Source of the DNA: an uncultured Alphaproteobacteria bacterium
Lineage (GTDB): Bacteria > Pseudomonadota > Alphaproteobacteria > SHNJ01
DNA length: 59,226 bases
NCBI GenBank assembly: GCA_964458615.1
Contig: CAYWJR010000002.1
Span: 19,071-78,296 of the forward strand
Reading direction: 5' to 3'
Below are positions 327 through 46,969 of the stretch, piece after piece (within the stretch, counting starts at the first letter, position 1; every line of letters starts with the position of its first letter). The notes under the pieces are model-generated. The model was not told where the DNA came from. It saw nothing but the letters and a program-made list of their open reading frames with translations, and made no database searches. The position numbers and the translations under genes were made by a program.

Positions 327-382
327 ACAACCTTAAGATGCAAATTATAATATCGCACAATCGCACATCGAACGGGAAAATC

Positions 383-4843: not shown

Positions 4844-4851
4844 GATAATCT

Positions 4852-5346
4852 ATGCAATCAAACCACAAAAATAAAGCCTCAATTCAAAATATTGTTGAGT
4901 CAATTAGATATTTAACTAGGAATGGATGCTACAATCAGGCGCTGAATTTATGCAACAACCTTATTGCGAATGATTGGCAATATGAGGGATATTTTGAAAG
5001 ATCATATATATATTTTTATCAAAAAGAATATGATCTGGCATTAAAAGATAAGTACAGGTTACTTGATATGCTAGAAAAAAAAGCAGCAACTTATTTTTCA
5101 ATAGCGGAGATTAATAGATTTAAAGGAAATTTACCTGAAGCAATCAAATCTTACGATAAATCTAGAGAGGAAGATCGCGATGGATTTTACGAGATAGCGA
5201 CATATTTCAGGGCAATTTGTTTTTATAATTTGAATGATTATAAAAATGCTCTGCAAGAGTGTCTGAAATTAAATCCTTCTGAAAAATTAGGGCCACACCC
5301 ATCTGTTGGGGAATTAATAGAAGCACTAAGAAGCAAGTCTAGCTAG
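4852..5346 (+). CDS. TPR-repeat protein, probable cognate immunity protein
   Basis: TPR-like helices (YFERSYIYFYQKEYDLALKD; YFSIAEINRFKGNLPEAIKSY; YFRAICFYNLNDYKNALQ). Starts 8 nt after the RHS stop and is AT-rich like the toxin tip. Confidence 0.75.
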   Translation: MQSNHKNKASIQNIVESIRYLTRNGCYNQALNLCNNLIANDWQYEGYFERSYIYFYQKEYDLALKDKYRLLDMLEKKAATYFSIAEINRFKGNLPEAIKSYDKSREEDRDGFYEIATYFRAICFYNLNDYKNALQECLKLNPSEKLGPHPSVGELIEALRSKSS

Positions 5347-32178: not shown

Positions 32179-34038
32179 ATGAGTGCGGATTTAATCCTGA
32201 GCGTACAAAACGCATCCATCCGGTTCGGCAAAAACATCTTGTTCGAAGATTTGACGTTTCACATCAACCGGCGCGATAAAATATGTCTGGTCGGTAAAAA
32301 CGGCACCGGCAAGACCACGTTGATGAATATTATCACCAACAGCATCGAATTGGACGGCGGCGAACGTTGGATTTATCAAGGCACCAGCATCGGATACCTG
32401 CAACAGGAAATTTTGCCCAAGGCCGGCCAGACAGTAAAAGAATTTTTGTTCGAACAATTGCCCGCCGATCAACAAACGCCTGAAAATAGTTACAAGGTGG
32501 AAATGGTCGCCGATAAACTGCAATTGGAAATCGGCGCGAAAGTGGAAAAATTATCCGGCGGTCAAATACGCCGCGCCGCGCTGGCGCGCGCGTTGATCGA
32601 AGAACCGGACATATTGCTGCTGGACGAACCGACCAACCATTTGGATTTGGGCGCGATCGAATGGTTGGAACAATATCTTAAAAATTACCGTGGCGCGTTG
32701 ATATGCGTCAGTCACGATAAGAAATTTCTGGCCAATGTTTCGGATCGCGTATTCTGGCTGGATCGCGGCAAATTGAAATTCAGCCCGCGCGGATTCGAAC
32801 ATTTCGACGAATGGTCGGAAATGTTGTTGGAACAAGAAGAACGCGAATTGGCCAATCGGCAAAAGATATTGGATCAAGAAATCGCCAAGGCTAGCCGCGG
32901 GGTGCGCGCGCGGCGCAAACGGAATGTACGGCGTTTGGAATCCATCAAATTGGAACAAGAACGGTTGAAACGCGATAAAAACGCATTGAATCGCATGTTG
33001 GCGAAAATAGAATTCGAAGAAATGGAAATCGAAGGAACATCGAAAAATGTCGCGGAGTTTTTTAACGTGCATAAAAAATTCACCGACTCCGACGGTGAAA
33101 AAACCATATTGAACAAATTCAGCCTGCGCATTCAACGCGGCGACCGTATCGGAATTTTGGGAAAAAACGGATCCGGCAAAACCACTTTCTTGCAATTGCT
33201 GACCGGCGAAATTGCGCCCGACATGGGCAAAGTAAAATTGGCCAAAGACATCGAATTTTCTTACTTTGACCAAAAGCGCCGTGATTTAAATCACCAAGCC
33301 ACATTATGGGGCACGTTATGCCCCAATGGCGGCGACCACATCAATGTAATGGGAAAACCCCGGCATGTTTATGGATATTTAAAAGATTTCTTGTTCGACC
33401 CCGCGATGGCGTTGCAATTGGTCGGCACGTTGTCGGGCGGGCAAAAAAACCGCCTGATGCTGGCCAAAGTTTTGGCAAACCCGAAAAGTTTCCTGATTCT
33501 GGATGAGCCCACAAACGATTTAGACATGGACACGTTGGACATGTTGGAAGAAATATTGGCGAATTACCAAGGCACATTGGTGGTTGTCAGCCATGATCGC
33601 GATTTTTTGGATCAGACCGTTACCAAGATATTGGCGTTCGAAGGCAATGGGATCGTCGAAGGATATATCGGCGGATACACCGATTATTTGAACAAACGCG
33701 CCGAACAAAACATTAAAACCAAACCTGTGCCTGCGGACAAATCAAAATCCCCCGCCCCTGCGAAATCAATTGCGCCGCAACCGGCCGCTCGGCAAAAAAT
33801 GTCGTATAAATTGATTTATGAATTGCAGCAATTGCCGAAAATTATAGAAAAATTGGAACAAGACATCGTATCGTTGCAAAATCAAATCCAAAATTACGAT
33901 TCCGCAACCACAAGCCAGCAAGAATTCGCCGATTTAACCAAACGCCTTGGCGACGCGACCCAGCAATTGGAACAAGCCGAAGAACGTTGGGTTGAATTAG
34001 AAGATATGCGCGCGGCAAACGAAGCGGTTACCAATTAA
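32179..34038 (+). CDS. uup: ABC-F family ATPase, Uup-like
   Basis: Two NBDs (GKNGTGKT, GKNGSGKT, LSGGQ, LDEPTN.LD), KG..ARRKRN.RR linker, C-terminal K.SYK...EL..LP..IE.LE...RW.ELE. Confidence 0.85.
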   Translation: MSADLILSVQNASIRFGKNILFEDLTFHINRRDKICLVGKNGTGKTTLMNIITNSIELDGGERWIYQGTSIGYLQQEILPKAGQTVKEFLFEQLPADQQTPENSYKVEMVADKLQLEIGAKVEKLSGGQIRRAALARALIEEPDILLLDEPTNHLDLGAIEWLEQYLKNYRGALICVSHDKKFLANVSDRVFWLDRGKLKFSPRGFEHFDEWSEMLLEQEERELANRQKILDQEIAKASRGVRARRKRNVRRLESIKLEQERLKRDKNALNRMLAKIEFEEMEIEGTSKNVAEFFNVHKKFTDSDGEKTILNKFSLRIQRGDRIGILGKNGSGKTTFLQLLTGEIAPDMGKVKLAKDIEFSYFDQKRRDLNHQATLWGTLCPNGGDHINVMGKPRHVYGYLKDFLFDPAMALQLVGTLSGGQKNRLMLAKVLANPKSFLILDEPTNDLDMDTLDMLEEILANYQGTLVVVSHDRDFLDQTVTKILAFEGNGIVEGYIGGYTDYLNKRAEQNIKTKPVPADKSKSPAPAKSIAPQPAARQKMSYKLIYELQQLPKIIEKLEQDIVSLQNQIQNYDSATTSQQEFADLTKRLGDATQQLEQAEERWVELEDMRAANEAVTN

Positions 34039-34987
34039 GATCCGGTTTGATCGCAACGAACGCGGTGACTTGATTGCCTTGTTCGTTGTATCCCAAATTG
34101 TCGAAACTGATCAAATTGGCCAATGCGATGCCGCGGCCATGATGTTCGCCCGCGCGCGATAAACTTAGGCGCAAATGGCTGCGCCAATCGAATCCCGCGC
34201 CTTGATCTTTGATGCTGACATAACATCCTTTGGCGGTGCGCTGGAAAATCGCTTGTATGTTCTTCGTTTTGTTTTCAGGCAGATTCAACCTGGCTTGAAT
34301 TTCATATTGCCAGCGGTCTTCTTGCAACAATTGTTTTTTCCTTTCGTAACCGATTCCTAAATTCCCGTGTTCGATTGCATTGGTCATCAATTCCGTTATC
34401 CCGATCAAAACGCGCTGTGGATTTGGAAAAAAACTGGCGATTACGCATGCCACATCCTCGGCTTGTTCCAATGTAGACAATGAAAAACTGCATGTTTCGA
34501 TCATATCGAAACTGGCGCGCTGGCGGCGCCAGGCTTCGGAAATGTTATTTTGCCGCTGCGCATCTTGCAATACCGTATCGATGACCGTATGCAACAAACC
34601 TTGCGCTACCGGCTTGGTCAAATAGTATATAATGCCCGCGTCCATCGCCGATTGAACCTGATTCGCATCGATCATCGCGATAATCGGCGTATATCCGCCC
34701 ACACCGCCTTTGGATGTTTCCTTGATCCAGCGCAAGGCCGCATCGTCGGCATACGCCCAATTGATAATGATCGCGTCAAACCCACCTTTCATGCCTGAAA
34801 TTACTTCATCGGCTTCGGCAATATTCGCGGCCGTGGTCGCCGAAAAACCAATAGCGCGTACATAATCCGCCACCTGATTCATGGAACTGGCGTCTTGTTC
34901 GACAATCAAAACTTTTGCATGCTGCACCAGACGCAAAGAAGACATTTCATAATTTTGTTTGCGTATAGAATTGGTTTGATTAGACAT
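34028..34987 (-). CDS. Pseudo-receiver + anti-sigma-type HATPase_c protein
   Basis: REC fold (VLIVEQD...DAIIINW...YYLTKP) plus GITELMTNAIEHGNL..., DQGAGFDW, HGRGIA, YN..GN.V; AGGAGA RBS before ATG 34987. Confidence 0.8.
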   Translation of the reverse strand: MSNQTNSIRKQNYEMSSLRLVQHAKVLIVEQDASSMNQVADYVRAIGFSATTAANIAEADEVISGMKGGFDAIIINWAYADDAALRWIKETSKGGVGGYTPIIAMIDANQVQSAMDAGIIYYLTKPVAQGLLHTVIDTVLQDAQRQNNISEAWRRQRASFDMIETCSFSLSTLEQAEDVACVIASFFPNPQRVLIGITELMTNAIEHGNLGIGYERKKQLLQEDRWQYEIQARLNLPENKTKNIQAIFQRTAKGCYVSIKDQGAGFDWRSHLRLSLSRAGEHHGRGIALANLISFDNLGYNEQGNQVTAFVAIKPDLNW

Positions 34988-35008
34988 TGAATTCTCCTGT
35001 TTCATCGA

Positions 35009-36370
35009 TTACCGCTCGGTAAAAGCGTTTTTAATCGTCGCCTGGATCGGTTTTAACAAATAGCCGAGGATAGTTTTTTCACCGGTGATAATATCGGCCT
35101 CTACCGTCATGCCGGGCAGAATGACATTGTGTCCGGGCACGGATCCCATGTGATTTTTGCTTAATAATACGCGGCCACGGTAAAATTTCTGTCCCTGATC
35201 GTCGGTGAATGTTGTCGCGGAAACCAGATCCAATTTCCCATCCAACATGCCATACCGCGCATAATCGAACGAGCTGACCTTGATTTTCACCGGCTGATCT
35301 TTGATGACGTGGCCTATATCTTGCGGCTGAATCTTGACTTCCGCCACCAAATCGTTGTCCAACGGCACGATTTCAAGCAATGTTTGCCCCGGTTGCACGA
35401 CGCCACCGATTGTATTGATATGCAGGCCTTTTACCAACCCGTCGACCGGCGCGCGGACTTCCAATCTTGCGACTTTGTCTTGCAATTTTTTGATCAACTG
35501 TTCGTTTTGCGCCATTTGCGATTCGACTGCATCGATTTGTTGATATGCCTGGTCGCGGTATTTTGCATCAAGCGAAGATAAACGCTCTTGATACTCGCTG
35601 ATGCCTTTTTGCGCTTGCTGCAATTCGCTCTTTAAACTTTGCCATTCACCTTGCGACCGGTTCATATTGCGGTTTTGTTCCATCATTTGCGCCTTTGACA
35701 GCAACCCTTCGGCCAGCATTTTTTTATACATCTGATTTTCTTCGCGCATGATGTCGTTGTTCGCGCCGCTCGCCGCGGCTTGGCTGTGCAACATATTGTA
35801 ACTGTCGCGTTTTTGTTCCAATTGTTTTTGCAAAACTTCTTGCTCGCTCGCGCGCGCCTTGATCATACTAAGATATATATCTTGCTGTTTCGCCACCATG
35901 GCCGGGGTATCCGCGAACGGGGCGAAATTCGGATTGCGTCCTTCGACGAATGCGTGCAACCGTTCGTTTTGCAATTCGAACGCGCGTTGTTTCGCGATAG
36001 ATTCCGCTAAATCCTGTTCGGCGCCGTTGCCGTCAAGCCGCAATAAAACTTGGTTCTTTTTTACCAAATTTCGCTCGCTGACCAATATTTCCCTTACGAT
36101 GCCGCCTTCTAAATGCTGTACTAACTGACTGAAACCTTTTGGCACGATTTCGCCATATGTGCGCGCGACTTCCCCTACTTTGGCGAATGCCGCCCAAACC
36201 GTCAACATTAACAAACAAGCCGCAATAGTCGTCGCGGTCCAGCGGATAATCACCGGATTTTGCGCTTCTTCCAATAAAATGGATTGCGACAAGAATTTCA
36301 ATTGTTTCTGCCGATTGCGGTATTTGAAATATCCGGCCGGTTTTTCGGTTGGGAATGTTTGTGTGATCAT
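35009..36370 (-). CDS. HlyD-family type I secretion periplasmic adaptor
   Basis: Single TM, GEIVP.G..Q.VQHLEGGIV, long coiled coil, RAPVDG.VK.L...T.GGVV.PG, K.SSFDYARYG, PGMTV.ADI.TG.KT...YL.KP. Confidence 0.95.
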   Translation of the reverse strand: MITQTFPTEKPAGYFKYRNRQKQLKFLSQSILLEEAQNPVIIRWTATTIAACLLMLTVWAAFAKVGEVARTYGEIVPKGFSQLVQHLEGGIVREILVSERNLVKKNQVLLRLDGNGAEQDLAESIAKQRAFELQNERLHAFVEGRNPNFAPFADTPAMVAKQQDIYLSMIKARASEQEVLQKQLEQKRDSYNMLHSQAAASGANNDIMREENQMYKKMLAEGLLSKAQMMEQNRNMNRSQGEWQSLKSELQQAQKGISEYQERLSSLDAKYRDQAYQQIDAVESQMAQNEQLIKKLQDKVARLEVRAPVDGLVKGLHINTIGGVVQPGQTLLEIVPLDNDLVAEVKIQPQDIGHVIKDQPVKIKVSSFDYARYGMLDGKLDLVSATTFTDDQGQKFYRGRVLLSKNHMGSVPGHNVILPGMTVEADIITGEKTILGYLLKPIQATIKNAFTER

Positions 36371-38583
36371 AAATTGTCTCCACTATTTTGCAGTTGCTGT
36401 AAAATCGCCGATGGGTTTCCGAACAATGGTATTTTCCCCGCGCGCAAGCCCAAAACCGCATCCGATTGGCGGATAAAATCTTCGCGGTGCGTAACCATAA
36501 TTATGGTTTTTTGACCGCGATAGGCATGAATCATCTGATGGATTTTTTTTCCGCTGTGGCCGTTTAACAATGCAGTCGGCAATTCATCCATCAACAATAT
36601 CGGCGTATCTTGCAACAATGCGCGCGCCAGATTCAGTTTGTATGCGAAACTGCCGCCCATATGGCCGATCGACTGGCCGGAAATCGGCGTGTCGATCCCA
36701 AGCGGCATCGCCGACATTTCAACGCCTGCATCAACCAAATCCATCACCTGCAGCAAACGGGCGCGTTCGGCCAATGGCGCGACCAGCCGCAAATTATCGG
36801 CAATCGTTCCATTGAAAAATTCCGGATGCTGGCTGACATAGGCGATATGGCGATGCAACGCGCCAGGTTCAATTTGCCTTATATCGATTCCATCGATCCG
36901 GATCGTGCCCGCCTGTGGGCGATACATGCCGTTGGCCAATTTCAATACCGTGCTTTTGCCCGATCCGTTCGATCCCGCAACGGCCAATATTTGTCCGGGC
37001 GCGATTTTAAAAGACAGCCCCGCGAATACCGGATCGCTGCTTTTACTATACCTCAAACCGACATATGAAAATTCAATTTGCCCCTTGATCCTGTGCGCGA
37101 TTTTTCCTGTGGCATCTTCTTCTTTTTGCGCTGCCATAGTCATCAATCGGTTGACCTGGCCGATTACGTGACGCAATTGTTCTATGCGCGGCAAAGACGT
37201 GCACAAAGTCGATATTGGCGACAAAGCGCGCCAGGTTAAAATCATCGTTGCAATCAATGCCCCGGTTGTTATTTCACCCGCAACAACCTTGCCGACGCCC
37301 AAATACAACGTCGCCAATCCCGCCAACACGTAAAAACTATATGCGATAGTTTCCAGAACCGTATTGCGGTGTGCATAATCGAATGCGGCGTATGCCGTTC
37401 TTCCCGACAAATCGTGAAACCGGCCATGCCATTGGCCGCACAATCCAGTGTATCGCAAGGCTTCGGATTTATCGAATGCTTCCAATGTCGATTGTTGCAA
37501 TTGCGATCCTGTTTTCGCGGCGTGATAAGCGGAAATTTTCAACGAACCGTAGAAATAATATAAAATCGCCAGATAAAATCCGGCCATTACGATGCTGACC
37601 AACGCCAAATTGCCCGCAATCGCCCAAATCGCCAAAACCAGCAACGCGACATACGGCACATCCATTAACGATAAAAACACCGAACCGCCGAAAAAATCGC
37701 GGATGGTTTCAAAACTTTTAATCCGCGCCAATTGCGATGCAACCGACGCGCGTTCAATCAATTGCGACGGCAATTGCAGTAAATGTCGGAATATTTCGTT
37801 GCCGACCATGTTGTCGATACGGGACCCAAGCCAAGTGAATTGCAATGCGCGCATGTGGCGCAACAATGCCTCGCCGACAATCGCGGCCGCCAATCCGACC
37901 GCCATCATCGGCAATGTTGCTATGGATTGCGATCCTATCACTTTGTCGTAAACAATCATCATTAACAACGGCAACATCAATGTAATGACATTGATCAGAA
38001 AACTTGTGAAAACCACTTGTTTTATAATCGGTTTCAACCGGCGCAACACGATTCTAAACCAACTTTTTCCGCTGGCTTTTTGATCGGTTGCGATACGTTG
38101 CATAACGTCGGATTTAGATTTATGAAAAACATAAGCAGTGCCACGCAATTTGCGCCACGCGGCGAAATTCAAATCCAATGTTTGGGCGCCATCGAAAACT
38201 ATATTGCGCCCGTCTTTTTCCTGCCAAACCAAGAATATCGCCGCATCGTCATTCGGCACGAACAAGACCGGATACAAACGCGGATCCATAAAATCCATTC
38301 TGGTTTTAAATTGCCGGACTTCGTAACCCAAATTGGCCATGGTGTTTTGAATATCCAGAACCGTAAAATTATCCCGGTGGCGTGGCAAGGCATCGCATAT
38401 ATCGGCCAATTCATGGCGATGCGGCAAGACACCGATCAATTTTGTAAAAATTTCCGCCTGAATATTTACGGCATTGCCTAAAAAACCCGCTTGATGCAGT
38501 ACACGGCTGTCAAACTGGGATTTGGCGAAACCGGCCGATACGACCGTGTCCATAGGTTCTATGGCATTTTCTATTGCGCTCAC
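36367..38583 (-). CDS. Type I secretion ABC transporter (C39-like N-domain; intact Walker A/B)
   Basis: S..IN...L..PL.MM.VYDKV, TMD, GSNGSGKST, LLMDEL, VTHR; signature degenerate (MGGSF). Confidence 0.9.
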   Translation of the reverse strand: MSAIENAIEPMDTVVSAGFAKSQFDSRVLHQAGFLGNAVNIQAEIFTKLIGVLPHRHELADICDALPRHRDNFTVLDIQNTMANLGYEVRQFKTRMDFMDPRLYPVLFVPNDDAAIFLVWQEKDGRNIVFDGAQTLDLNFAAWRKLRGTAYVFHKSKSDVMQRIATDQKASGKSWFRIVLRRLKPIIKQVVFTSFLINVITLMLPLLMMIVYDKVIGSQSIATLPMMAVGLAAAIVGEALLRHMRALQFTWLGSRIDNMVGNEIFRHLLQLPSQLIERASVASQLARIKSFETIRDFFGGSVFLSLMDVPYVALLVLAIWAIAGNLALVSIVMAGFYLAILYYFYGSLKISAYHAAKTGSQLQQSTLEAFDKSEALRYTGLCGQWHGRFHDLSGRTAYAAFDYAHRNTVLETIAYSFYVLAGLATLYLGVGKVVAGEITTGALIATMILTWRALSPISTLCTSLPRIEQLRHVIGQVNRLMTMAAQKEEDATGKIAHRIKGQIEFSYVGLRYSKSSDPVFAGLSFKIAPGQILAVAGSNGSGKSTVLKLANGMYRPQAGTIRIDGIDIRQIEPGALHRHIAYVSQHPEFFNGTIADNLRLVAPLAERARLLQVMDLVDAGVEMSAMPLGIDTPISGQSIGHMGGSFAYKLNLARALLQDTPILLMDELPTALLNGHSGKKIHQMIHAYRGQKTIIMVTHREDFIRQSDAVLGLRAGKIPLFGNPSAILQQLQNSGDNL

Positions 38584-40337
38584 TATACCATCTCCATTAT
38601 CGCGAAATTGTTTGCTTTGGCTTGCTTTGGGGTTTCGGGCTCGGCGGAAATACCGTTTTCGTTCAAAACAAATTTTTGTTCCGCAAGGCTTAGAATATTC
38701 TGATCTTCGGTTACCAAAACCAATGTCGCCTTGCCTTTTAACCGTCCCATCAAACGATACAGCAAGTTATATCCGTCTTTGTCCAAATCGCGGTCTGCGT
38801 TATTGAATAAAATCAATTTCGGTTTGTGCGCTATCGAACGCGCGATTGCGATGCGTTGTTTCAATCCCGGCGGAATGGGATCGGCTACAATATCTTCCAA
38901 GACCGTTTCCATTCCGTTCGGCAATTTCGCGATTTCGGTATCGATACCCAGCAATTCCGATATTTCACGCACGGTTTCAGGATCTATCCGTCCAAAATGG
39001 CTTAGATTGTCGTAAATTGTTCCTTGGAAAATAACGCCGCGCATCGGCAAATACGCGCAATGGCGGATGCGTTCGTCATGCGGATAATCCCGCACATCCA
39101 ATCCGTTCAATTTCGCCTGGCCGGCAGAAGGAACCAGCAGACCCGCCATGATCCGCAACAATGACGTTTTAGATTCTTCGTTTTTTCCGGATATGGCGAT
39201 ACATTGGCCGGGGAATAATTGCAAACTGACATGTCGCAAATTGTTCGAAGAACTGTCCGGATCGATATATGCAATGCCGTTCAATTCCAAATGGCCTTCG
39301 TTTTGCGGATATGATTGCCTGTACGCGGGCTCTTCGGCAGCATTTTTGAAAAAATCATCCAGTTTTTCCTGGGCTGATTTAAAATCCTGATATCGCAACC
39401 ACAAACCGAACGATCTTTGAATCGGCTGTAAAATCCGCCCCGCCAACAATATGCAGGCGATCAGACTGCCCATGCTGAAATATTTGGCGACCACCATTGG
39501 TGCGCCGAATATTACGATGCAAGCCACCATAATTTGCCCATATACTTGGGCATCGTTGACGGCTTCGGCCGATAATTTGGTTAAATTATAATTGCAGCGG
39601 CTGGAATTTGATTGCAAAGCCTCGTATTGACGCACGAATCCAGCCTCCAGCCCAAGCGATTTTGTGGTGTGGATTCCGCCCAAGACATCAATCAGGAAAT
39701 CGTATTTTTGATCGTCCGCTTGATCCCGTTCTTTTAATGCTTGTTGCGTGTAACGGCCACAAACATAGGCGCGCAGCCCGAAAAAAAATAAAATCGTAAT
39801 CGGAACCAAAACCAATGATCCGGCAAGATAATAAATCAACCCTAAAAAAACCATGGCAAACGGCAAATCGATCATGCTGGCCAGGGCTTGGCCGGAATAA
39901 AATTCGCGCAATTTTCCGATTGCCGTCAATTTCTGCAATTGAGTTCCCAAATTGGCGGCATTTTTTTTGCTGCATCCGCCCGATAAAATATGTTTGACCG
40001 CTTTGTTATAAATCCGGTGTTCAATCGCCGCACCAACCCAGCCGGACACATAAGACCTGGCGATTTGAAGCAAAGATTCCATAGCCAAGGCGACAACCAC
40101 GCCCAAGGCCAGCATGTTTAACGTGCTGATCCCGTTTTTGGCGATGATGCGGTCATAAACTTGCAACGATGCAATCGGCAATGCCAGCGATAAAACATTG
40201 ATCGCTAAACTTGCCAGAATTACGTAAATCGGGCTGTAATCGATTTTAATGTCCGAAAACCAATGCGATTGATTGGCGGGCGATAAAATCTGCCTGTGGC
40301 GGAAACCACGTCCGCCGCCTAATGCGTTGTCAAACAT
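38583..40337 (-). CDS. Type I secretion ABC transporter with degenerate NBD
   Basis: SLAINVLSLALP...LQVYDRI, TMD; Walker A GKNEESKT, signature IPPGLKQR, Walker B LILFNN, switch VTED. Confidence 0.88.
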   Translation of the reverse strand: MFDNALGGGRGFRHRQILSPANQSHWFSDIKIDYSPIYVILASLAINVLSLALPIASLQVYDRIIAKNGISTLNMLALGVVVALAMESLLQIARSYVSGWVGAAIEHRIYNKAVKHILSGGCSKKNAANLGTQLQKLTAIGKLREFYSGQALASMIDLPFAMVFLGLIYYLAGSLVLVPITILFFFGLRAYVCGRYTQQALKERDQADDQKYDFLIDVLGGIHTTKSLGLEAGFVRQYEALQSNSSRCNYNLTKLSAEAVNDAQVYGQIMVACIVIFGAPMVVAKYFSMGSLIACILLAGRILQPIQRSFGLWLRYQDFKSAQEKLDDFFKNAAEEPAYRQSYPQNEGHLELNGIAYIDPDSSSNNLRHVSLQLFPGQCIAISGKNEESKTSLLRIMAGLLVPSAGQAKLNGLDVRDYPHDERIRHCAYLPMRGVIFQGTIYDNLSHFGRIDPETVREISELLGIDTEIAKLPNGMETVLEDIVADPIPPGLKQRIAIARSIAHKPKLILFNNADRDLDKDGYNLLYRLMGRLKGKATLVLVTEDQNILSLAEQKFVLNENGISAEPETPKQAKANNFAIMEMV

Positions 40338-40360: not shown

Positions 40361-42532
40361 TTAAAACAGGAACCCTTTGTGTGAATTAGAAGAAGACCCC
40401 CCGCCCAGGCCCAACCCGCCAAAGCTGTTCAATACCGCCGGCGCGACGGCGGCTACGGTATTTGAAACTATATTCACAGTATTGGTAACGGCCTGCGTTG
40501 TGACATGGGTTGTTTGCGTAACCCAATTGTCGGCCGTATTGCTTGGCGGCGCCGATAACACATCGCCTGCGTATTCCGGCAATGGACTTGCCAAAATGTG
40601 ATCCAACCCTGATGCCGCATCCATAACCAGATCGGCCGCACCATTCAATATTTGATCCAACGACATACCGCCGCCCATTCCAGAATCGCAATCATCGGTG
40701 TCGGTTCCAAAACTGATAAGGTGCAATAATGATTCGCCCGTATCCACGGCATCCATGCAATCATTCGACAATGCATTTTCCGCTGCATCCGCCAACGAAT
40801 CGATTGCACCCATAGGCAATGCGCAACCCGCCGATTCGATAATGTTTTCAGCCATATTTTGGGTGACATCCGCCGTGTGTGTTGCCAAACCGCCCACGAT
40901 TTCCGGAACGATTACCAATATATCGCTGACAACGGATCCCGAATTATCCGCCAAGTTTTCAACCGGTTCCGAAACACATTCCACCGTCTGCAATACTGCG
41001 CATGGAATATCGGCCACCTGTTCGGCGGTTGTATCCAGTATCGTTGCGGCAATACCGACAACAGGCTCGATAATTTCTTCTGCGATTCCGCCAATTGCGC
41101 CGACAACGTCGCAAGGCGATGCGCAATCGTCCGCGCCGCCATTCAACAATCCGGCAATCGATTCCACCTGCAATGGCAATGAACCTATATCAAGGCCAAT
41201 ATTCAATATTTCGCCTTCGGCCAGATTCGTATCAATTTGAATTATTCCGGCGACATCCGCATTAAGGGTTAAATTATCGCCTGCTTGAATATCCAAATCG
41301 ATCGCGATATTCGGCAATTCGGGCAAAACCGATTCCGGCAGAATCGCATCTATGGCGACTTGCGCCGAAATACCATCTTGTGCATTCATATCAACGGCGA
41401 TTTCCGCATCAACCGAAACATTGGTGTCGCCCAATACCGGCAATCCCAAATCCGTTGCGATATTTGTGTCAAGATCGACAGCGATTTCCGGTAATTCGCC
41501 GTTTTCCGCAACAATTCCGATTTCCGCGTCCACGTCAATTGCGGCCTGCAAATCAACCGGCACAACCGGCAAGTCCGTATCTAAGGCCAACTGAACATCC
41601 GCATCCACCGCGATCTGCAATGGTTCACAAAATCCGCCGGTGATGCAAATATCCAAATTTTCTTGTACATCCAGTTGAACAATGTCCGCGATGTTCGCCG
41701 CCAATTCCGTGTCAGCGGAAATATCCAAATGAATCGAATCGCAATTCAGATCCAAACAAACATCGACATCCGTTTGAACATCAAGTTCCACCAAAGGCAA
41801 ACAAATCGCCACGTCTAAATCCAAATCGATATGGATCTCAATACCGCAATCGCCGCCGCCATGACAATCATCGCCGCCACAAGGTGGATCCGTTGGTGGC
41901 GGACCGGGAGGCGGATTTGGACCCGGCGGTGGATTTGGACCAGGAGGAAGATTCGGTCCTGGCGGCGGATTTGGGCCCGGTGTTGGATTATTGGGGTTTG
42001 TATTGACCGGCGGTTTGTTTGGTTCCGGCGTATCAACAACCGTTTTAACGACGATAGGCGTTATCAAAATAGAATCATCGTGTGAATTGATGGAATCTAT
42101 TTTCTGTAAATCAGGGCTTTCCGATAATTGCAACGCGGCTGCCGCAGGTTGAACGAATTCTGCCGCTGGCGAAAGGGTTAAATTATTCAAAATTACCGGC
42201 ATCGGTTTTTCCGTCATAACGTTCGATGCGGTTAAAACAAGATTGTCCACCCCTGATATCGATTGGATTAAAACACCATCGGTATTCAATGGCGAATCTT
42301 GGCTGGCGGCTTGGTCATGCTTTTCGTCCCCAGAATCTTTTGAAGGCTGCAACACCTTATAGGCGGCACGCAGGCTGATGATGGACATATCGTCGGCAAT
42401 CGCGCCTTCATAGGCCTGAAACATATCTTCTTTCAGGTCCTGCTGATAAACATTTTGCAACACCGTCATTTGATCCAGGCTTATTCTTGGCTGGTCGTAT
42501 GTGACGGTAATGTTTTGCGTTGATTCTGCCAT
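40361..42532 (-). CDS. Large acidic Cys-rich protein, probable T1SS substrate (unknown family)
   Basis: First gene of the T1SS run; no Sec signal; Pro-rich linker, alternating hydrophobic/Asp region, acidic helical region, C-terminal GGLGLGGGSSSNSHKGFLF. Confidence 0.75.
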   Translation of the reverse strand: MAESTQNITVTYDQPRISLDQMTVLQNVYQQDLKEDMFQAYEGAIADDMSIISLRAAYKVLQPSKDSGDEKHDQAASQDSPLNTDGVLIQSISGVDNLVLTASNVMTEKPMPVILNNLTLSPAAEFVQPAAAALQLSESPDLQKIDSINSHDDSILITPIVVKTVVDTPEPNKPPVNTNPNNPTPGPNPPPGPNLPPGPNPPPGPNPPPGPPPTDPPCGGDDCHGGGDCGIEIHIDLDLDVAICLPLVELDVQTDVDVCLDLNCDSIHLDISADTELAANIADIVQLDVQENLDICITGGFCEPLQIAVDADVQLALDTDLPVVPVDLQAAIDVDAEIGIVAENGELPEIAVDLDTNIATDLGLPVLGDTNVSVDAEIAVDMNAQDGISAQVAIDAILPESVLPELPNIAIDLDIQAGDNLTLNADVAGIIQIDTNLAEGEILNIGLDIGSLPLQVESIAGLLNGGADDCASPCDVVGAIGGIAEEIIEPVVGIAATILDTTAEQVADIPCAVLQTVECVSEPVENLADNSGSVVSDILVIVPEIVGGLATHTADVTQNMAENIIESAGCALPMGAIDSLADAAENALSNDCMDAVDTGESLLHLISFGTDTDDCDSGMGGGMSLDQILNGAADLVMDAASGLDHILASPLPEYAGDVLSAPPSNTADNWVTQTTHVTTQAVTNTVNIVSNTVAAVAPAVLNSFGGLGLGGGSSSNSHKGFLF
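41884..41995 (-). repeat. Coding 18-bp PNPPPG repeats (~5 copies)
   Basis: NPTPG PNPPPG PNLPPG PNPPPG PNPPPG PPPTDPP. Confidence 0.9.
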
Positions 42533-42717: not shown

Positions 42718-43401
42718 ATGCAAATCTATAAATATATAATAATATTAATTGTAATTATGGCCGCGCCCGCGATTGCCCGCGCCGAATTTATTATCAACAA
42801 CGCAATCATCGAATTCTTACCCGGAGCGGAGGCGCAACAAGACATAGAATTGGCCAGCAAATCCGACAAAAACGATTATATCGATACAGAGATCAATGAG
42901 ATTATCAATCCTGGATCGGATCAAGAAACAAGACGTAAATTAAAAAACGCCGCGAATGAATCGATACTGGTCACCCCGAATAAAACAGTTTTGACCGCAG
43001 GCAGCCGAAAAATTTTACGATTTATTTTATTGCAACCGCATGGCGACCATGAACGAATTTACCGCGTCGCCGTAAAACCGGTTGTCAATGAACTGGAACA
43101 CATTGAAAAAGTGGGTTTAAAAATATTGATTGGATATGAAATATTGGTAATCGTCCGCCCGAACGAAATTAAATCGGCGTACAATGCCAAACGCAACGGC
43201 AAAATAATTTCAATTCATAATACCGGCAACAGTAGCGTTTTATTTCAAGCCAGCCAGCAATGCATTAAAAAGAACGACTGTAAAATGCCGCCCAGCATCC
43301 GGGCATATGCCGGACAACACACCCAAGTCGAACTGCCATTCGACGCGCCCGCCATTTATAACGTCTGGGACGGTGTAAAATCCAGCCAAGTTAATTTTTA
43401 A
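42718..43401 (+). CDS. Fimbrial periplasmic chaperone (alternate/CfaA-EcpB-like)
   Basis: Signal peptide ...APAIARA; LVTPNK..L.AG....LR, ERIYRV.VKPV, IL.GYEILVIVRP, NTGN.SV, C....C. Confidence 0.8.
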   Translation: MQIYKYIIILIVIMAAPAIARAEFIINNAIIEFLPGAEAQQDIELASKSDKNDYIDTEINEIINPGSDQETRRKLKNAANESILVTPNKTVLTAGSRKILRFILLQPHGDHERIYRVAVKPVVNELEHIEKVGLKILIGYEILVIVRPNEIKSAYNAKRNGKIISIHNTGNSSVLFQASQQCIKKNDCKMPPSIRAYAGQHTQVELPFDAPAIYNVWDGVKSSQVNF

Positions 43402-45850
43402 TGCCAACCGTAACGCAAGGCAACGGCGAATCATATATCATCACCCCATTGACTAGACGCCCAGTATCCGGCATTTCCACCTGGCATTCCTGTCCACCTG
43501 CGCTTTTTGTGGACCCACGCTGTTTTGTTCTAAATTTAATTTTTCCGCGCCTGTTCAGCTCGGCTTGGATATAACCGTCTTCATCCGTCATCGCAGGGGT
43601 TTTAATATCCAGCAACTCTGCGCCGGTTAATGGCGCACCAGAATCGTCGATTATTTTACCGGTCATGACATAAAATTTGTCAACTTGCCATTTCAAGTGC
43701 GTTACGTTCCCAGGATACAATGTCACTTTTTGTGCGCTTGTATCATAATCGAACAAACCTTTTTTAGACGGCGATATTCTGATTTTATATGTTTGGTATG
43801 GGGGCAAATATAATACTTGCGATTTACCAACTTTGACCAAACTGCGTTCCGCATTGCCCACAAATATTTTCATATCCGTGTCCGCATCGCCTTCGGTGTC
43901 TATTACCACCGCGCTTTTATCGTTTTGATCGCCACCCAAATAAATGCCGTTTTCCAACATCGCCATATTGATTGCGAAACCGCCGCTGTAATTCAAAATC
44001 GATTCCTCGCCACCGAACGATTGTTGCACCGAACCGCGAAACCGCCCGATACGATTACGCCAGTCCGCATCGGCGTTGACGATTTTATTGCTGCGGTCAA
44101 CCCCAAACCCGGCGCCTACAGACAGCGCCTTGTGGGGCTTTACGTCGTCGTGCCAAACGCGCATGTTTCCTTGAATATCTTGTCTGCCGTCGCGCAAATT
44201 CGAACCTATATTTCCTGAAACGCCATATTGTCCGATAGTGTAGGTCAAATTAAACAACAAACTGCCTTCGTAATCGCCGCTTGATTTGGCAAAATCGGCG
44301 GTGGCCGAAAAACGGCTTTCTTGTTCTTGCCATATATTCCACTGCGCATATGGGCCTATCGAAAATATTTCCGGCGCGGATGCGGTTTCGGTGTAATTGC
44401 CGCGTATGCCGGCGGTTATATCCGCAGTTACCTGATAACTGGTGCTGGCGGTAAATTGGGTCAAATCATCCAATAACTGATCGTACCGTTGCAATTTCTT
44501 GCTTCCCGCCCAGATTTTGCGCAGATCGATATTGCCGCTCCACATTTCATCGAAATACAGAATACTTCCTTGCAAACCGAAATCCATTTCGGTCGATACA
44601 ATATTCGTTGCCCGCAATTGCAAATTCGAATCGATCATAAAAACTGAATTTTCTACCGCCAAACGATCGCCCAGCACCACCGCACCTGAACTCAGCGCAA
44701 TCTGGTCGTCCATGCGCGAAACGATACCTGCGCGCAATATCATATCTTTGGTAATTTCCGGCAATGCCGAATCGTCCGCCGCCGATTGACGCAAAAATCC
44801 CGCTTGTAAGAAATACGATGGATCGTCTGCCGGGGGTATGTCCTGGTTTTTAGCGAAAAAACGGTTTTCCTCGCGCTCTGCCCCGTCCGATTCCTGAATT
44901 TTCAAAATAATCGGATACGCGCCTTCGGGTAAATCGGATGTATCGATTTTTTGATTGCCGGCCTCGTATGGGCGCGAAGAATATAACCGTCCTTCACGGT
45001 ATATCGACACGAATGACCGGCGCGGCAAGTACAATATTATATCGTTTCCTGAAATTTTCCGCGCATCCAGTTTGGTTTTATTCGATATCGCAAAATATAT
45101 TCCGGCCATATCCTTGTCGCTGGCCAACTGCATCGGCTGGCTTCGAAACAGTCCGCCGCCCATATCAAATCCATTTTTCTCGACACCGAACTGCGCCGCA
45201 TCGAACCGCAATCCATCGTTCGATACGGTCGATTGGGAAACAAATCGTTTTTCGCCAAATGCATAAACCGCATTGTTGCTAAGTGCAAAATTGGGGTCTT
45301 GTTGCGACGATCCCGAAACCGCTCCATTCCAGCCATACACGGATGAAAATTTTTGTTCCGGAAGGGGCAAATATTTTTCCTGCATATTGTCCGAAAGATC
45401 CAGATAATCTTTATGAATGAATATTTCCGAGCTTAAATTATTTTCATCGAATACAACATCAACCGATTCAGTATCTATCTTACCGCAATCGTGCACGGCT
45501 TGCTGGCGGCATATTTTTGATGCGTTGATGGGCAATGGCTCCTGCATTCTTGCCAATAAAGACGTGGTATTTTTTAGATTCGGTATTTGGCGCAAAATAT
45601 CTTGCGGATTTTCAAACCGTATATATCCGGGCGTGGAATAAGCCGGGAATTTACCGATTGTGTCGCCGCCATATTGCACACCAACCATCAACAAACGGGG
45701 TTGATCCAAATCTTCGAATCCTTTCGGGGTTCCGGGTTTCTCGGTAATTGCGGCAAAACATGGATGCGCGGCCGGGATTACAGCCAGCATTACTATAATG
45801 CATGACCGCGCCATGGCGGATTTACAGCGTGATCCAATAATAGAAAACAT
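43391..45850 (-). CDS. Fimbrial usher (TcfC/CooC/EcpC-like)
   Basis: Signal peptide; P.GFEDL.QP, V.F.E..L...I, SFVSIYREGRL.SSR.Y.AGNQ.IDTS.LPEG.Y.I.LKI.E..G, YLPPY.TY, TLYPGNV, TDEDGY.Q.E, terminal Cys pair. Confidence 0.88.
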   Translation of the reverse strand: MFSIIGSRCKSAMARSCIIVMLAVIPAAHPCFAAITEKPGTPKGFEDLDQPRLLMVGVQYGGDTIGKFPAYSTPGYIRFENPQDILRQIPNLKNTTSLLARMQEPLPINASKICRQQAVHDCGKIDTESVDVVFDENNLSSEIFIHKDYLDLSDNMQEKYLPLPEQKFSSVYGWNGAVSGSSQQDPNFALSNNAVYAFGEKRFVSQSTVSNDGLRFDAAQFGVEKNGFDMGGGLFRSQPMQLASDKDMAGIYFAISNKTKLDARKISGNDIILYLPRRSFVSIYREGRLYSSRPYEAGNQKIDTSDLPEGAYPIILKIQESDGAEREENRFFAKNQDIPPADDPSYFLQAGFLRQSAADDSALPEITKDMILRAGIVSRMDDQIALSSGAVVLGDRLAVENSVFMIDSNLQLRATNIVSTEMDFGLQGSILYFDEMWSGNIDLRKIWAGSKKLQRYDQLLDDLTQFTASTSYQVTADITAGIRGNYTETASAPEIFSIGPYAQWNIWQEQESRFSATADFAKSSGDYEGSLLFNLTYTIGQYGVSGNIGSNLRDGRQDIQGNMRVWHDDVKPHKALSVGAGFGVDRSNKIVNADADWRNRIGRFRGSVQQSFGGEESILNYSGGFAINMAMLENGIYLGGDQNDKSAVVIDTEGDADTDMKIFVGNAERSLVKVGKSQVLYLPPYQTYKIRISPSKKGLFDYDTSAQKVTLYPGNVTHLKWQVDKFYVMTGKIIDDSGAPLTGAELLDIKTPAMTDEDGYIQAELNRRGKIKFRTKQRGSTKSAGGQECQVEMPDTGRLVNGVMIYDSPLPCVTVGIKN

Positions 45851-45896
45851 AAATTAAGGACTAAAACGTAGGTTTATTGACTGAACTAAGAAACGA

Positions 45897-46388
45897 TTAG
45901 GAAGGGGTTAGCAATAATGTGATTGTGCCGGTATAGGTTCCCGATAATGCGGATTCCATACTGGATTGAGTGATAGACAAATTTAAACGCGCATTCGGAC
46001 CAAGCAGGGTGCAAGAATTATCAAGGATGTTGCCGCGCAACTGTCCGGTCAGCGTCACGCCATTGGTCAATGGCGATCCTGGTTCGGAACCAAGATTTCC
46101 AGCTCCGGAATCGTCCCATCTGAGCGAATATGGAATATTGCCGCTGCCGTTTGTCAGGAAAAAACCGCCTGGGCTGCTGATATTGATTGCATACCCGCCC
46201 AAGGGCGCGAGGTTGTTTGTGTATATGCAAATATCCATAGACGCCGACACATTCGATTGCCCCATGCTCCATGTCGGTAAATTAAAATCGCTTATATTAC
46301 TGATTCGCATCGCAAACAAAGCATGCGCCCTGCCAGCAGGCAGAACGCACAAACACATCGCAATCAGGACAATGCAAATTCTTTGCAT
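45897..46388 (-). CDS. Putative minor pilin (paralog of the upstream pilin)
   Basis: ATG 46388 after AGGA RBS; signal peptide; ISNISDFNLPTW, CIYT, C....NARL, YTGTITLLLTPS. Confidence 0.75.
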   Translation of the reverse strand: MQRICIVLIAMCLCVLPAGRAHALFAMRISNISDFNLPTWSMGQSNVSASMDICIYTNNLAPLGGYAINISSPGGFFLTNGSGNIPYSLRWDDSGAGNLGSEPGSPLTNGVTLTGQLRGNILDNSCTLLGPNARLNLSITQSSMESALSGTYTGTITLLLTPS

Positions 46389-46396
46389 CTCAATTC

Positions 46397-46969
46397 CTAA
46401 AACGGCGTAATTAACATAGTCAAAGTCCCCGTGTATGGCGTGGAACTGGATGCGGCGGAATTCATATTCCCGGATGTGATGCCTACAATCACGCGCGCGG
46501 TATCGTTGCCCGATCCGCCGCCGGAACATGTGGCGCTGGTGGTGCTGGCGTTGGAAAACGATGCCGATTGAATATTGGTTGTCAGCGCAGTGCCGGTATT
46601 GGCCAAATTACCCGCGCCGCCGGAATTCCATGTTACTGTGTAAGCAATCAAATTAAGTCCGCTGGCAATAGTGAACGCATTCACAAGCCCGCTGCCGGTC
46701 GCAGTGACTTTGTAACTGCCGGTCGATGAATAAACGCAAACGTTGCTGTACAATGTAACGTCGCCGTCGCCCACACTCCAATTCGCTAATGTCATATCGC
46801 TGATATCGCTTATTTGAGCCTGAACGGATTTTGTGATGCTGATATTCGCGCTGCCGGTCGATGTCGCGCCCAACGATCCTTGGGTTGCCGCATTTGCGCC
46901 TGTTGTAACAAGAATGATCATCGCTACAACCATCGGAAAACGAATTGATGCAACTAAATGCTGAAACAT
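46397..46969 (-). CDS. Putative major pilin
   Basis: Signal peptide ...GANA; ATQGSLGATSTGS, ISDISDMTLANW, CVYS, C.....NDTARV, YTGTLTMLITPF. Confidence 0.8.
   Translation of the reverse strand: MFQHLVASIRFPMVVAMIILVTTGANAATQGSLGATSTGSANISITKSVQAQISDISDMTLANWSVGDGDVTLYSNVCVYSSTGSYKVTATGSGLVNAFTIASGLNLIAYTVTWNSGGAGNLANTGTALTTNIQSASFSNASTTSATCSGGGSGNDTARVIVGITSGNMNSAASSSTPYTGTLTMLITPF

Follow-up and report, generated by a model that had tools for sequence, protein, structure and literature searches.

A lysine- and arginine-free acidic protein as the probable cargo of a type I secretion cassette

Introduction

Why would a bacterial protein carry neither lysine nor arginine over 545 consecutive residues? 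The question is raised by an open reading frame (ORF) of 723 amino acids in a 59,226-nucleotide stretch of DNA from an uncultured Alphaproteobacteria bacterium (GTDB lineage SHNJ01; GenBank assembly GCA_964458615.1, contig CAYWJR010000002.1, positions 19,071 to 78,296 of the forward strand), which is referred to here as the window. An earlier note, made from the letters and the ORF translations of the window, had drawn attention to this protein and to a type I secretion system (T1SS) encoded beside it. We followed up that note by computational analysis. The observation was borne out and is not a product of chance, and it reaches further than the earlier note could show. The 723-aa protein (hereafter the target) is probably the dedicated cargo of the T1SS in its operon, as judged from the sequences. 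It belongs to an uncurated and widespread class of cargos that is recognized by a gene position upstream of a short ATP-binding cassette (ABC) protein, the exclusion of Lys and Arg (K/R), a conserved N-terminal module (N-module), and a C-terminal module with a Trp and a GGLFG-like tail.

Results

Exclusion of lysine and arginine from the protein

The start codon of the cargo ORF is preceded by a G-rich Shine-Dalgarno-like stretch. Lys is found at positions 34, 59, 65, 71, 109, 144, 163, 173, and 719 of the target and Arg at positions 16 and 55; K+R amounts to 1.5% overall, and 10 of the 11 K/R lie within residues 1-173. Residues 174-718 (nt 42013-40379) form the K/R-free run of 545 residues between K173 and K719 that the earlier note had reported, and the translation confirmed it with no in-frame K/R codon. 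The second-longest K/R-free run among the window ORFs of at least 200 aa is 78 residues. Over the same 545 codons, the other two frames contain 100 and 108 K/R codons, and shuffles that preserve codon-position composition gave 34.8 ± 4.8 K/R codons with a minimum of 19. At the window mean K+R of 10.6%, the probability of a K/R-free run of this length is approximately 3e-27. The absence of K/R from the cargo ORF is the result of frame-specific purifying selection and not of base composition. The identical protein with the same neighbours was found on three independent metagenome assemblies or contigs.

The target contains 10.8% Asp and 5.0% Glu, and the paucity of aromatic residues (13 in total) and the confinement of all 15 Cys residues to the acidic part (residues 218-615) were as described previously. 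Computed trypsin cleavage is restricted to the first 173 residues and to the site before the last four residues, and leaves a 556-residue fragment.

The T1SS cassette in the operon

The cargo gene is the first of five genes on one strand, in which neighbours are separated or overlap by no more than 23 nt (Table 1); the gene for the short ABC half-transporter begins 23 nt past the cargo stop codon, and the genes for a long ABC half-transporter, a HlyD-type adaptor, and a protein with receiver and HATPase_c_2 domains follow. The best NCBIfam match of both ABC proteins was type_I_sec_LssB, under its cut-off.

The ABC motifs were read from the window sequences, the family consensus, and the patterns used in the genome scan described below. 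In the short ABC, IPPGLKQR replaces LSGGQ, LFNNAD (LFDNAD in the family consensus) replaces the Walker B Asp-Glu, the H-loop His is absent, and, in the window only, the Walker A reads GKNEESKT. In the long ABC, the Walker A, Walker B, and H-loop motifs are canonical and the signature, MGGSF, is degenerate. This complementary degeneracy of the motifs points to an asymmetric heterodimer in which one of the ATP sites is inactive, a feature that is conserved across the family. The N-terminal extension of the long ABC matched Peptidase_C39 at E 0.15 over profile positions 31-101; since this partial match does not cover the part with the catalytic Cys, the domain is called C39-like here.

The receiver/HATPase_c_2 protein matched the PDB entry 9qih, named 'SenB' (304 aa), with an E value of 1.5e-10 over the HATPase_c_2 half and at collinear positions. 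No paper describing this entry was found in the literature; it is distinct from the SenB that takes part in selenoneine synthesis. Phosphorelay control of the cassette is suggested by the receiver/HATPase_c_2 gene and by the hybrid kinase and Hpt genes that lie near many cassettes. Promoter and terminator scans gave results no better than shuffles.

Distribution of the cassette and a class of K/R-poor cargos

Hundreds of proteins are homologous to the short ABC, with identities of 35-64%, and the same cassette is present in their contexts. We scanned one genome per GTDB species with the family-specific degenerate motifs of the short ABC and obtained 80 loci, which do not include the genome of the window; the best ABC identity among them was 49%. 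The cassette was found at 83 loci in total, distributed over Gamma- and Alphaproteobacteria, Bdellovibrionales, and Desulfobulbia. The taxa obtained in the scan were Cellvibrionaceae and other Gammaproteobacteria, Methyloligellaceae, Asticcacaulis, Micavibrio (including the complete genome of M. aeruginosavorus), metagenome-assembled genomes (MAGs) of Rickettsiales, Bdellovibrionales/Pseudobdellovibrionaceae, Endobugula sertula, and many Desulfobulbia. Of the 83 loci, 71 have a recognizable adaptor gene and 66 the receiver/HATPase_c_2 gene; contig ends truncate many of the loci.

K+R was lower than 3.5% in 53 of the 671 ORFs of at least 300 aa across the cassette loci. Forty-four of these 53 lie directly upstream of the short ABC gene, and most of the others are overlapping frames or a displaced cargo. 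The 44 upstream cargos are 488-2846 aa in length with K+R of at most 3%. These results strongly support the link between the target and the adjacent T1SS that the earlier note had proposed, which now rests on cassette synteny across the 83 loci. One 808-aa K/R-poor ORF with a GGLGGLFG tail is located downstream of its cassette (L044:17101-19527), so the gene order is not absolutely fixed.

In a set of 45 cargos (38,032 residues), K+R was 1.0%; 46% of the K/R lay within the first 100 aa, and the density beyond them was 0.6%. The set contained 13.5% Asp and 4.8% Glu (a D/E ratio of 2.8-fold), 12.1% Gly, 0.2% Cys, and 0.1% Trp. Acidity varied across the class from 5% to 44% D+E, with K/R exclusion constant. 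The 887-aa cargo from Methyloligellaceae (L008:7335-9998, same as L012) contains 44% Asp/Glu with long poly-Asp/Gly/Ala repeats and, like that of L054, is among the members that reach 38-44% Asp/Glu with poly-Asp tracts. The 2846-aa cargo from Asticcacaulis (L022:1313-9853) is rich in Thr, Ala, Ser, and Val and has 4.9% D+E and 2 K/R. Two cargos (L054:2553-4913 and L063:535-2001) have no K/R at all. The exclusion of K/R, the hallmark of the class, extends even to weakly acidic members and points to a constraint of export or stability that goes beyond carboxylate chemistry alone.

The upstream proteins of distant cassettes have only the N-terminal motif and extreme acidity in common with the target. 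The Desulfobulbia loci in which no K/R-poor ORF was found include L024, L025, L029, L030, L040, L041, L046, L048, L049, L060, L061, L066, L068, and L071; at L061 (Desulfosediminicola flagellatus), three Hsp20-type small heat-shock genes lie upstream of the cassette instead.

Shared N- and C-terminal modules

A hidden Markov model (HMM) of the N-module was built from five cargos (L005, L008, L014, L021, and L026) without the window and L004 sequences. It matched residues 15-66 of the target (25.7 bits, E 6e-4 at Z = 1e6) and none of the other ORFs of the window. A comparison of the gamma-type module with the alphaproteobacterial-type module (KLDADQYSAEDLDGVTESLFGSGNL.Y..LQ) using hhalign gave a P value of 3.6e-5 and a probability of 71% over 50 columns, and paired DLKEDMFQAYEG with KLDADQYSAEDLDG. 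The target has the N-module pattern L-[DK]-[AE]-D-x-[YF]-x-A-[ED] ('LDADxYxAE' type), and 'GSGN' is present in the alphaproteobacterial modules. The description of an ordinary N-domain in the earlier note was therefore mistaken, as the target begins with the sole module that is statistically common to other cassette cargos.

At the other end of the cargos, the last 100 aa contain 36 of the 50 Trp residues of the class in 11.8% of its residues (P about 7e-23). The C-terminal Trp is usually the sole Trp, lies 54-71 residues from the end, and occurs in WTE, WPE, WVD, or WVT; W670 of the target is at -54. A G-G-L-F-G-like tail, often after His, was found in 34-36 of the 45 cargos. The GFLF ending that had been noticed in the target is present, but it is a variant (KGFLF, common to the target and L004) of this class-wide tail, which follows the positionally conserved single Trp. 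The tails are rich in Thr, Val, Gly, and Phe and poor in K, R, E, and P, a composition that fits published T1SS C-termini, in which D, L, T, V, I, F, and G are enriched and K, R, E, and P depleted (PMC8861453). HMMs of the whole class gave no match to the target.

The only full-length relative of the target is encoded upstream of the short ABC gene of L004 (L004:7043-9967). This protein (974 aa, with 12 K/R) is 39% identical to the target, and the short ABC proteins are 63% identical. It has the same N-terminal 62 residues (LDQMTVLQNV...), a PNPDPD linker, the knot C...C.GGGDCGI.IH.D, 10 of the 15 Cys residues, and the C-terminal 55 residues, which end in HHKGFLF.

Regions of the target

The body of the target was divided into a Pro-rich linker, a Cys/His/Gly knot, a region of alternating hydrophobic and Asp residues, and an acidic Ala/Val/Ile-rich region, followed by the C-terminal module (Table 1). 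The DNA of the linker is an 18-nt tandem repeat (41901-41989). The alternation that the earlier note had pointed out was borne out statistically; over residues 226-470, the period-2 alternation of hydrophobic and non-hydrophobic residues gave z = 5.4 and the triplets of hydrophobic-[DE]-hydrophobic residues gave z = 4.4 against shuffles. The autocorrelation of the cargo sequence alternated to a lag of about 13 and then decayed, and no period of 5, 6, or 9 and no longer coil period was found in it. A pentapeptide, hexapeptide, or other regular beta-solenoid repeat was rejected on the basis of this autocorrelation, which has period 2 only. The preference for D over E (2.8-fold) and the period-2 alternation fit a cation-binding beta structure.

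Cys richness and Asp alternation stand as properties of the target and not as hallmarks of the class. Cys is rare in the cargos as a whole, and the alternation exceeded z = 3 in only 4 of the 45; both are traits of the subfamily formed by the window and L004 proteins. AlphaFold2 models from the single sequence were too poor to be relied upon, with a predicted local distance difference test (pLDDT) score of 36.4 for the full protein and 39.6 for residues 214-470, and the strands in the alternation region were drawn with this low confidence. The acidic region that the earlier note had read as amphipathic helices is present, but the helical character of residues 474-705 was seen only in the model with pLDDT 36, and residues 466-660 possibly form amphipathic helices. 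The C-terminal module contains the sole Trp in 'NWVTQTTH', a Thr/Val-rich stretch, and a Gly/Ser tail that ends in ...SHKGFLF.

Regular-expression searches found no GGxGxDxUx or GxGxD motif in the cargo, and neither Pfam nor NCBIfam gave an RTX match, in agreement with the earlier note. Membership in the RTX family was rejected on the absence of the nonapeptides and of a HemolysinCabind match.

Library and literature searches

No match to the target was found in Pfam, NCBIfam, or PADLOC; the PDB sequence search returned only noise from the Pro-rich linker, and the PDB profile search with the N-module gave no match. A match to a characterised family, which the earlier note had named as a result that would count against its reading, was thus found in none of Pfam, NCBIfam, and PDB. 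Eight other cargos of the class also had no family match in the curated libraries. The word-indexed search of 5.8 billion clusters with the whole protein and with residues 226-723, and the exhaustive phmmer search of 1.84 billion representatives with the 723-aa sequence, gave no match, and the exact sequence was absent from the clustered protein collection. In a local phmmer control, the L004 homologue would score E 1e-46 at that library size, which indicates that the null results reflect libraries without these proteins and not a failure of sensitivity. Scans of JGI metagenomes for peptide and DNA patterns that are conserved in the Cys-knot subfamily revealed no further copy and no additional close relative. 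No description of the cargo class or of the cassette was found in the literature, which may be explained by the near-invisibility of such a protein to tryptic proteomics.

Genomic neighbourhood

Beside the cargo gene, upstream and divergent, lies an alternate chaperone-usher cluster (Table 1). The cluster is also present at L004:2504-6763 and L088:2469-6559 and at none of the other 80 loci. Among the window, L004, and L088, the short ABC proteins are only 36-63% identical, and the pilin-like ORFs are 64-73% identical. The co-travelling of this cluster with the cassette hints at a shared surface or adhesion role.

Elsewhere in the window, the stretch 338-5346 comprises the gene for a 1501-aa protein that contains RHS repeats and DUF6531, as is typical of polymorphic toxins, and then a 164-aa ORF that could be its immunity gene. 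At 90% identity, the housekeeping proteins encoded in the window are singletons in a collection of 15 billion proteins, and the genome is absent from the GTDB species representatives. This points to a little-sampled lineage, which the nearest cassettes would make probably gammaproteobacterial. No tRNA or Rfam family was found in the 59-kb window.

Table 1. Coordinates in the window of the cargo gene, the regions of its product, the T1SS cassette, and the neighbouring chaperone-usher cluster.
Feature	Position (nt)	Strand	Evidence or remark
Cargo gene	40361..42532	-	ATG start, 723 aa, net charge about -103
N-terminal conserved module (...SLDQMTVLQNVYQQDLKEDMFQAYEG...), aa 14-63	42344..42493	-	HMM and hhalign
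Pro-rich linker, PGPNPP repeats, aa 174-217	41882..42013	-	PNPDPD linker at the same place in L004
Cys/His/Gly knot CGGDDCHGGGDCG, aa 218-230	41843..41881	-	C218, C223, C229, and GGGDCGI kept in L004
Beta-type hydrophobic/Asp alternation region, aa 231-465, 5 Cys	41138..41842	-	Degenerate internal repeats
Acidic Ala/Val/Ile-rich region, aa 466-660, 7 Cys	40553..41137	-	Long insertions here in L004
C-terminal module, candidate secretion signal, aa 661-723	40364..40552	-	Kept in L004
Short T1SS ABC half-transporter, 584 aa, without N-terminal domain	38583..40337	-	Pfam ABC_membrane, ABC_tran
Long T1SS ABC half-transporter, 738 aa, C39-like N-terminal domain	36367..38583	-	Pfam/NCBIfam
HlyD-family periplasmic adaptor, 453 aa	35009..36370	-	TIGR01843, 376 bits, above cut-off
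Receiver + HATPase_c_2 (RsbW-like) protein, 325 aa, last gene of the cassette	34028..35005	-	Pfam/NCBIfam
Alternate chaperone-usher cluster	42718..46969	.	Pfam/NCBIfam
TcfA-like chaperone	42718-43401	+
TcfC/CooC-like usher	43391-45850	-
Two pilin-like ORFs	45897-46969	-

Discussion

We favour, with moderate confidence, the reading that the target is a T1SS cargo from which cationic residues have been excluded for export and which forms an acidic, cation-binding surface or matrix structure outside the cell; our confidence is high that it is the cargo of the cassette and low to moderate in regard to the extracellular role itself. T1SS cargos cross in the unfolded state, and the export of HlyA has been reported to proceed C-terminus first. 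The machinery for the target would consist of the asymmetric heterodimeric ABC exporter, the HlyD-type adaptor, and the receiver/HATPase_c_2 regulator, with the outer-membrane channel presumably encoded elsewhere. The chain would stay unfolded and be threaded C-terminus first, with the C-terminal module as its signal, and cationic side chains would be excluded because they would stall ABC-driven export against the inside-negative membrane potential. It has been reported for T1SS ABC transporters that cationic stretches block secretion and that their removal or neutralisation rescues it, and the membrane potential was invoked (Byun et al. 2022, PMC9223453). The purge of K/R throughout the class irrespective of acidity fits such an export constraint, taken to an extreme by this type of exporter. 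The N-module, with nearly all of the remaining K/R, would exit last. If export does proceed C-terminus first, this module, in view of the clustering of K/R near the N-terminus, is a candidate element for docking or retention, and would probably dock on the C39-like domain or retain the protein at the cell surface. Once outside, the Asp-lined amphipathic beta-strands may take up cations such as Ca2+, and the ten Cys residues shared with L004, reduced in the cytoplasm, would oxidise or bind metal. This cation/Cys step may act as a folding switch analogous to the Ca2+-driven folding of RTX proteins. A surface or matrix structure, rich in beta-strands and strongly acidic, would result, and it may participate in adhesion with the neighbouring chaperone-usher fimbriae.

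Several points weigh against this reading. Secretion is predicted from sequence, as are the binding of cations, the chemistry of the Cys residues, retention at the surface, and a link with the fimbriae. Ordinary T1SS cargos tolerate several per cent K+R, and an export constraint alone may therefore not explain total exclusion. No gene for a TolC-type or other outer-membrane factor was found among the window ORFs of at least 400 aa. In 22 Desulfobulbia cassettes, no K/R-poor cargo was found within 10 kb, and the cargo of these cassettes is elsewhere or different. The class was defined by synteny, composition, and short motifs, and its members were selected partly by composition; comparisons with a C-terminal subgroup HMM and with hhalign were not significant, and phmmer with the window protein found L004 alone (E 1e-46) and not the other 43. 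The class is not yet a strict homology family, and only L004 is significantly similar to the target over its full length.

The known systems that are closest to the cassette differ from it in distinct ways. Substrates of the RTX type (HlyA, CyaA, and AprA-type proteases and lipases) are also very acidic and rich in Asp and Gly and are encoded beside an ABC exporter and a HlyD adaptor; the target has a candidate uncleaved C-terminal signal whose composition fits published T1SS C-termini (PMC8861453). In contrast to their mild bias, the target shows near-total exclusion of K/R, and it differs further in the conserved N-module, the G-G-L-F-G-type tail, the 15 Cys residues, and an exporter that appears to pair two different ABC halves, with one of the ATP sites degenerate. 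A second likeness is to T1SS cargos that were engineered to be negatively supercharged or to have their cations neutralised, as the removal of cations lets proteins pass ABC transporters (PMC9223453). Those cargos are laboratory variants for homodimeric systems of the TliDEF type, whereas the present class is natural, belongs to another cassette, and is known from genes alone. The RtxB/RtxE/RtxD system for the Vibrio MARTX toxin, like the window cassette, has two different ABC half-transporters in one T1SS. What it exports is a giant repeat toxin, which carries effector domains and has a normal K/R content, and no receiver/HATPase_c_2 gene is known to be involved. The layout of the target, in which the N-module could hold the protein at the cell surface, resembles that of RsaA, SapA, and LapA-type proteins, which have an N-terminal retention element, a variable or repetitive body, and a C-terminal signal. 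In the comparison with LapA/BapA, no adhesin, BTLCP, or LapD-type domain was found in the protein or its neighbours and no LapG/LapD-type gene was found, and no lattice or adhesin domain was detected in the 723-aa protein. Asp-rich mineral-associated or Ca-binding beta proteins share the alternation of Asp with hydrophobic residues that would give one carboxylate face, a likeness that is a compositional analogy only, without homology.

Other explanations deserve to be weighed in regard to the K/R exclusion and the function of the class. The cassette may represent a distinct T1SS subtype that passes no cationic side chains, for example with electrophoretic assistance from the membrane potential through the asymmetric heterodimer, and its cargos would have lost Lys and Arg over hundreds to thousands of residues as a consequence. 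In this subtype, the N-module would dock on the C39-like domain, a receiver/kinase under phosphorelay control would gate export, and the class, which yields almost no tryptic peptides, would have escaped proteomics. We consider this possible, although we would not expect it to be so.

A somewhat unlikely explanation is that K/R were lost through selection outside the cell, where a durable exoprotein would resist trypsin-like proteases, whether of the producer itself or of competitors, prey, or hosts, and the modification or cross-linking of Lys. Members of the class are common in predatory and host-associated lineages, which are exposed to proteases (Micavibrio, Bdellovibrionales, Rickettsiales MAGs, and Endobugula), the exclusion holds in the weakly acidic L022 cargo (4.9% D+E, 2 K/R in 2846 aa), and trypsin would leave the 556-aa fragment of the target. 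Selection by proteases nevertheless leaves unexplained the residual K/R in the first 100 residues and the strict tie to one T1SS cassette, beside which no linked protease gene was seen. Protease resistance is a plausible driver, and it is compatible with the explanation by export.

It is improbable, though worth considering, that the target is a T1SS-secreted surface-layer (S-layer) or coat protein, with the N-module as an anchor and the acidic body in a Ca2+-dependent lattice, similar to RsaA of Caulobacter and SapA of Campylobacter fetus. The conserved N-terminus, hypervariable body, and C-terminal signal resemble the S-layer layout, the protein is acidic and rich in Asp and Gly, and the class includes Asticcacaulis, a relative of Caulobacter. 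However, no similarity to S-layer families was found in Pfam or NCBIfam, S-layer proteins are usually rich in Lys, and the receiver/kinase gene and neighbouring phosphorelay genes suggest conditional and not constitutive production.

Two further proposals appear to us to have little chance of being correct. According to the first, the N-module is a leader peptide read by the C39-like domain in the fashion of bacteriocins and peptidase-containing ABC transporters (PCATs), and the C-terminal motif has another role. The sole statistically shared element is indeed N-terminal, the long ABC bears a C39-like domain, and 'GSGN' occurs in the alphaproteobacterial modules. The C39 match is, however, weak and leaves out the part with the catalytic Cys, no Gly-Gly site occurs in the N-module of the target, the cargos, at 500-2800 aa, far exceed leader-type substrates, and the C-terminal Trp and GGLFG are at least equally conserved in position. 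The PCAT leader mechanism was rejected on the partial C39 match, the lack of a GG site, and the size of the cargo. According to the second, which we hold to be just as doubtful, the target is a mineral-templating or antiscalant polyanion (a nucleator or inhibitor of Ca-carbonate or Ca-phosphate) or a metal sponge. The members with 38-44% Asp/Glu and poly-Asp (L008 and L054), the excess of D over E, and the Cys/His knot of the target are in keeping with this proposal, but the exclusion of K/R is constant in a class whose acidity ranges from 5% to 44%, and no gene for mineralisation or metal homeostasis was found in the cassette or the neighbourhood. Lastly, the view that there is no gene here, and that the frame stays open by chance in DNA of odd composition, has a negligible probability and was rejected, since, although no protein library matches it, the absence of K/R codons is frame-specific, the position-specific features of the class are present, a 39% identical homologue at the same operon position keeps the termini and Cys residues, and the identical protein occurs in three samples.

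If the favoured reading, in which the target is an exported cargo purged of cations, is true, nature has run a cation-removal experiment on T1SS cargos in dozens of lineages, over lengths of 500-2800 residues, and with one type of exporter, and a natural system would be available in which to test directly how the charge of the cargo and the membrane potential act on type I secretion. The N-module and the W...GGLFG tail would constitute a new pair of signals that is usable for genome annotation. The class would comprise exoproteins that are probably abundant, occur in environmental bacteria, symbionts, and predators, and escape routine proteomics with trypsin. The window protein itself would be a beta-rich scaffold with an Asp face and stabilisation by Cys, and might be of interest as a secretion carrier or for the binding of cations.

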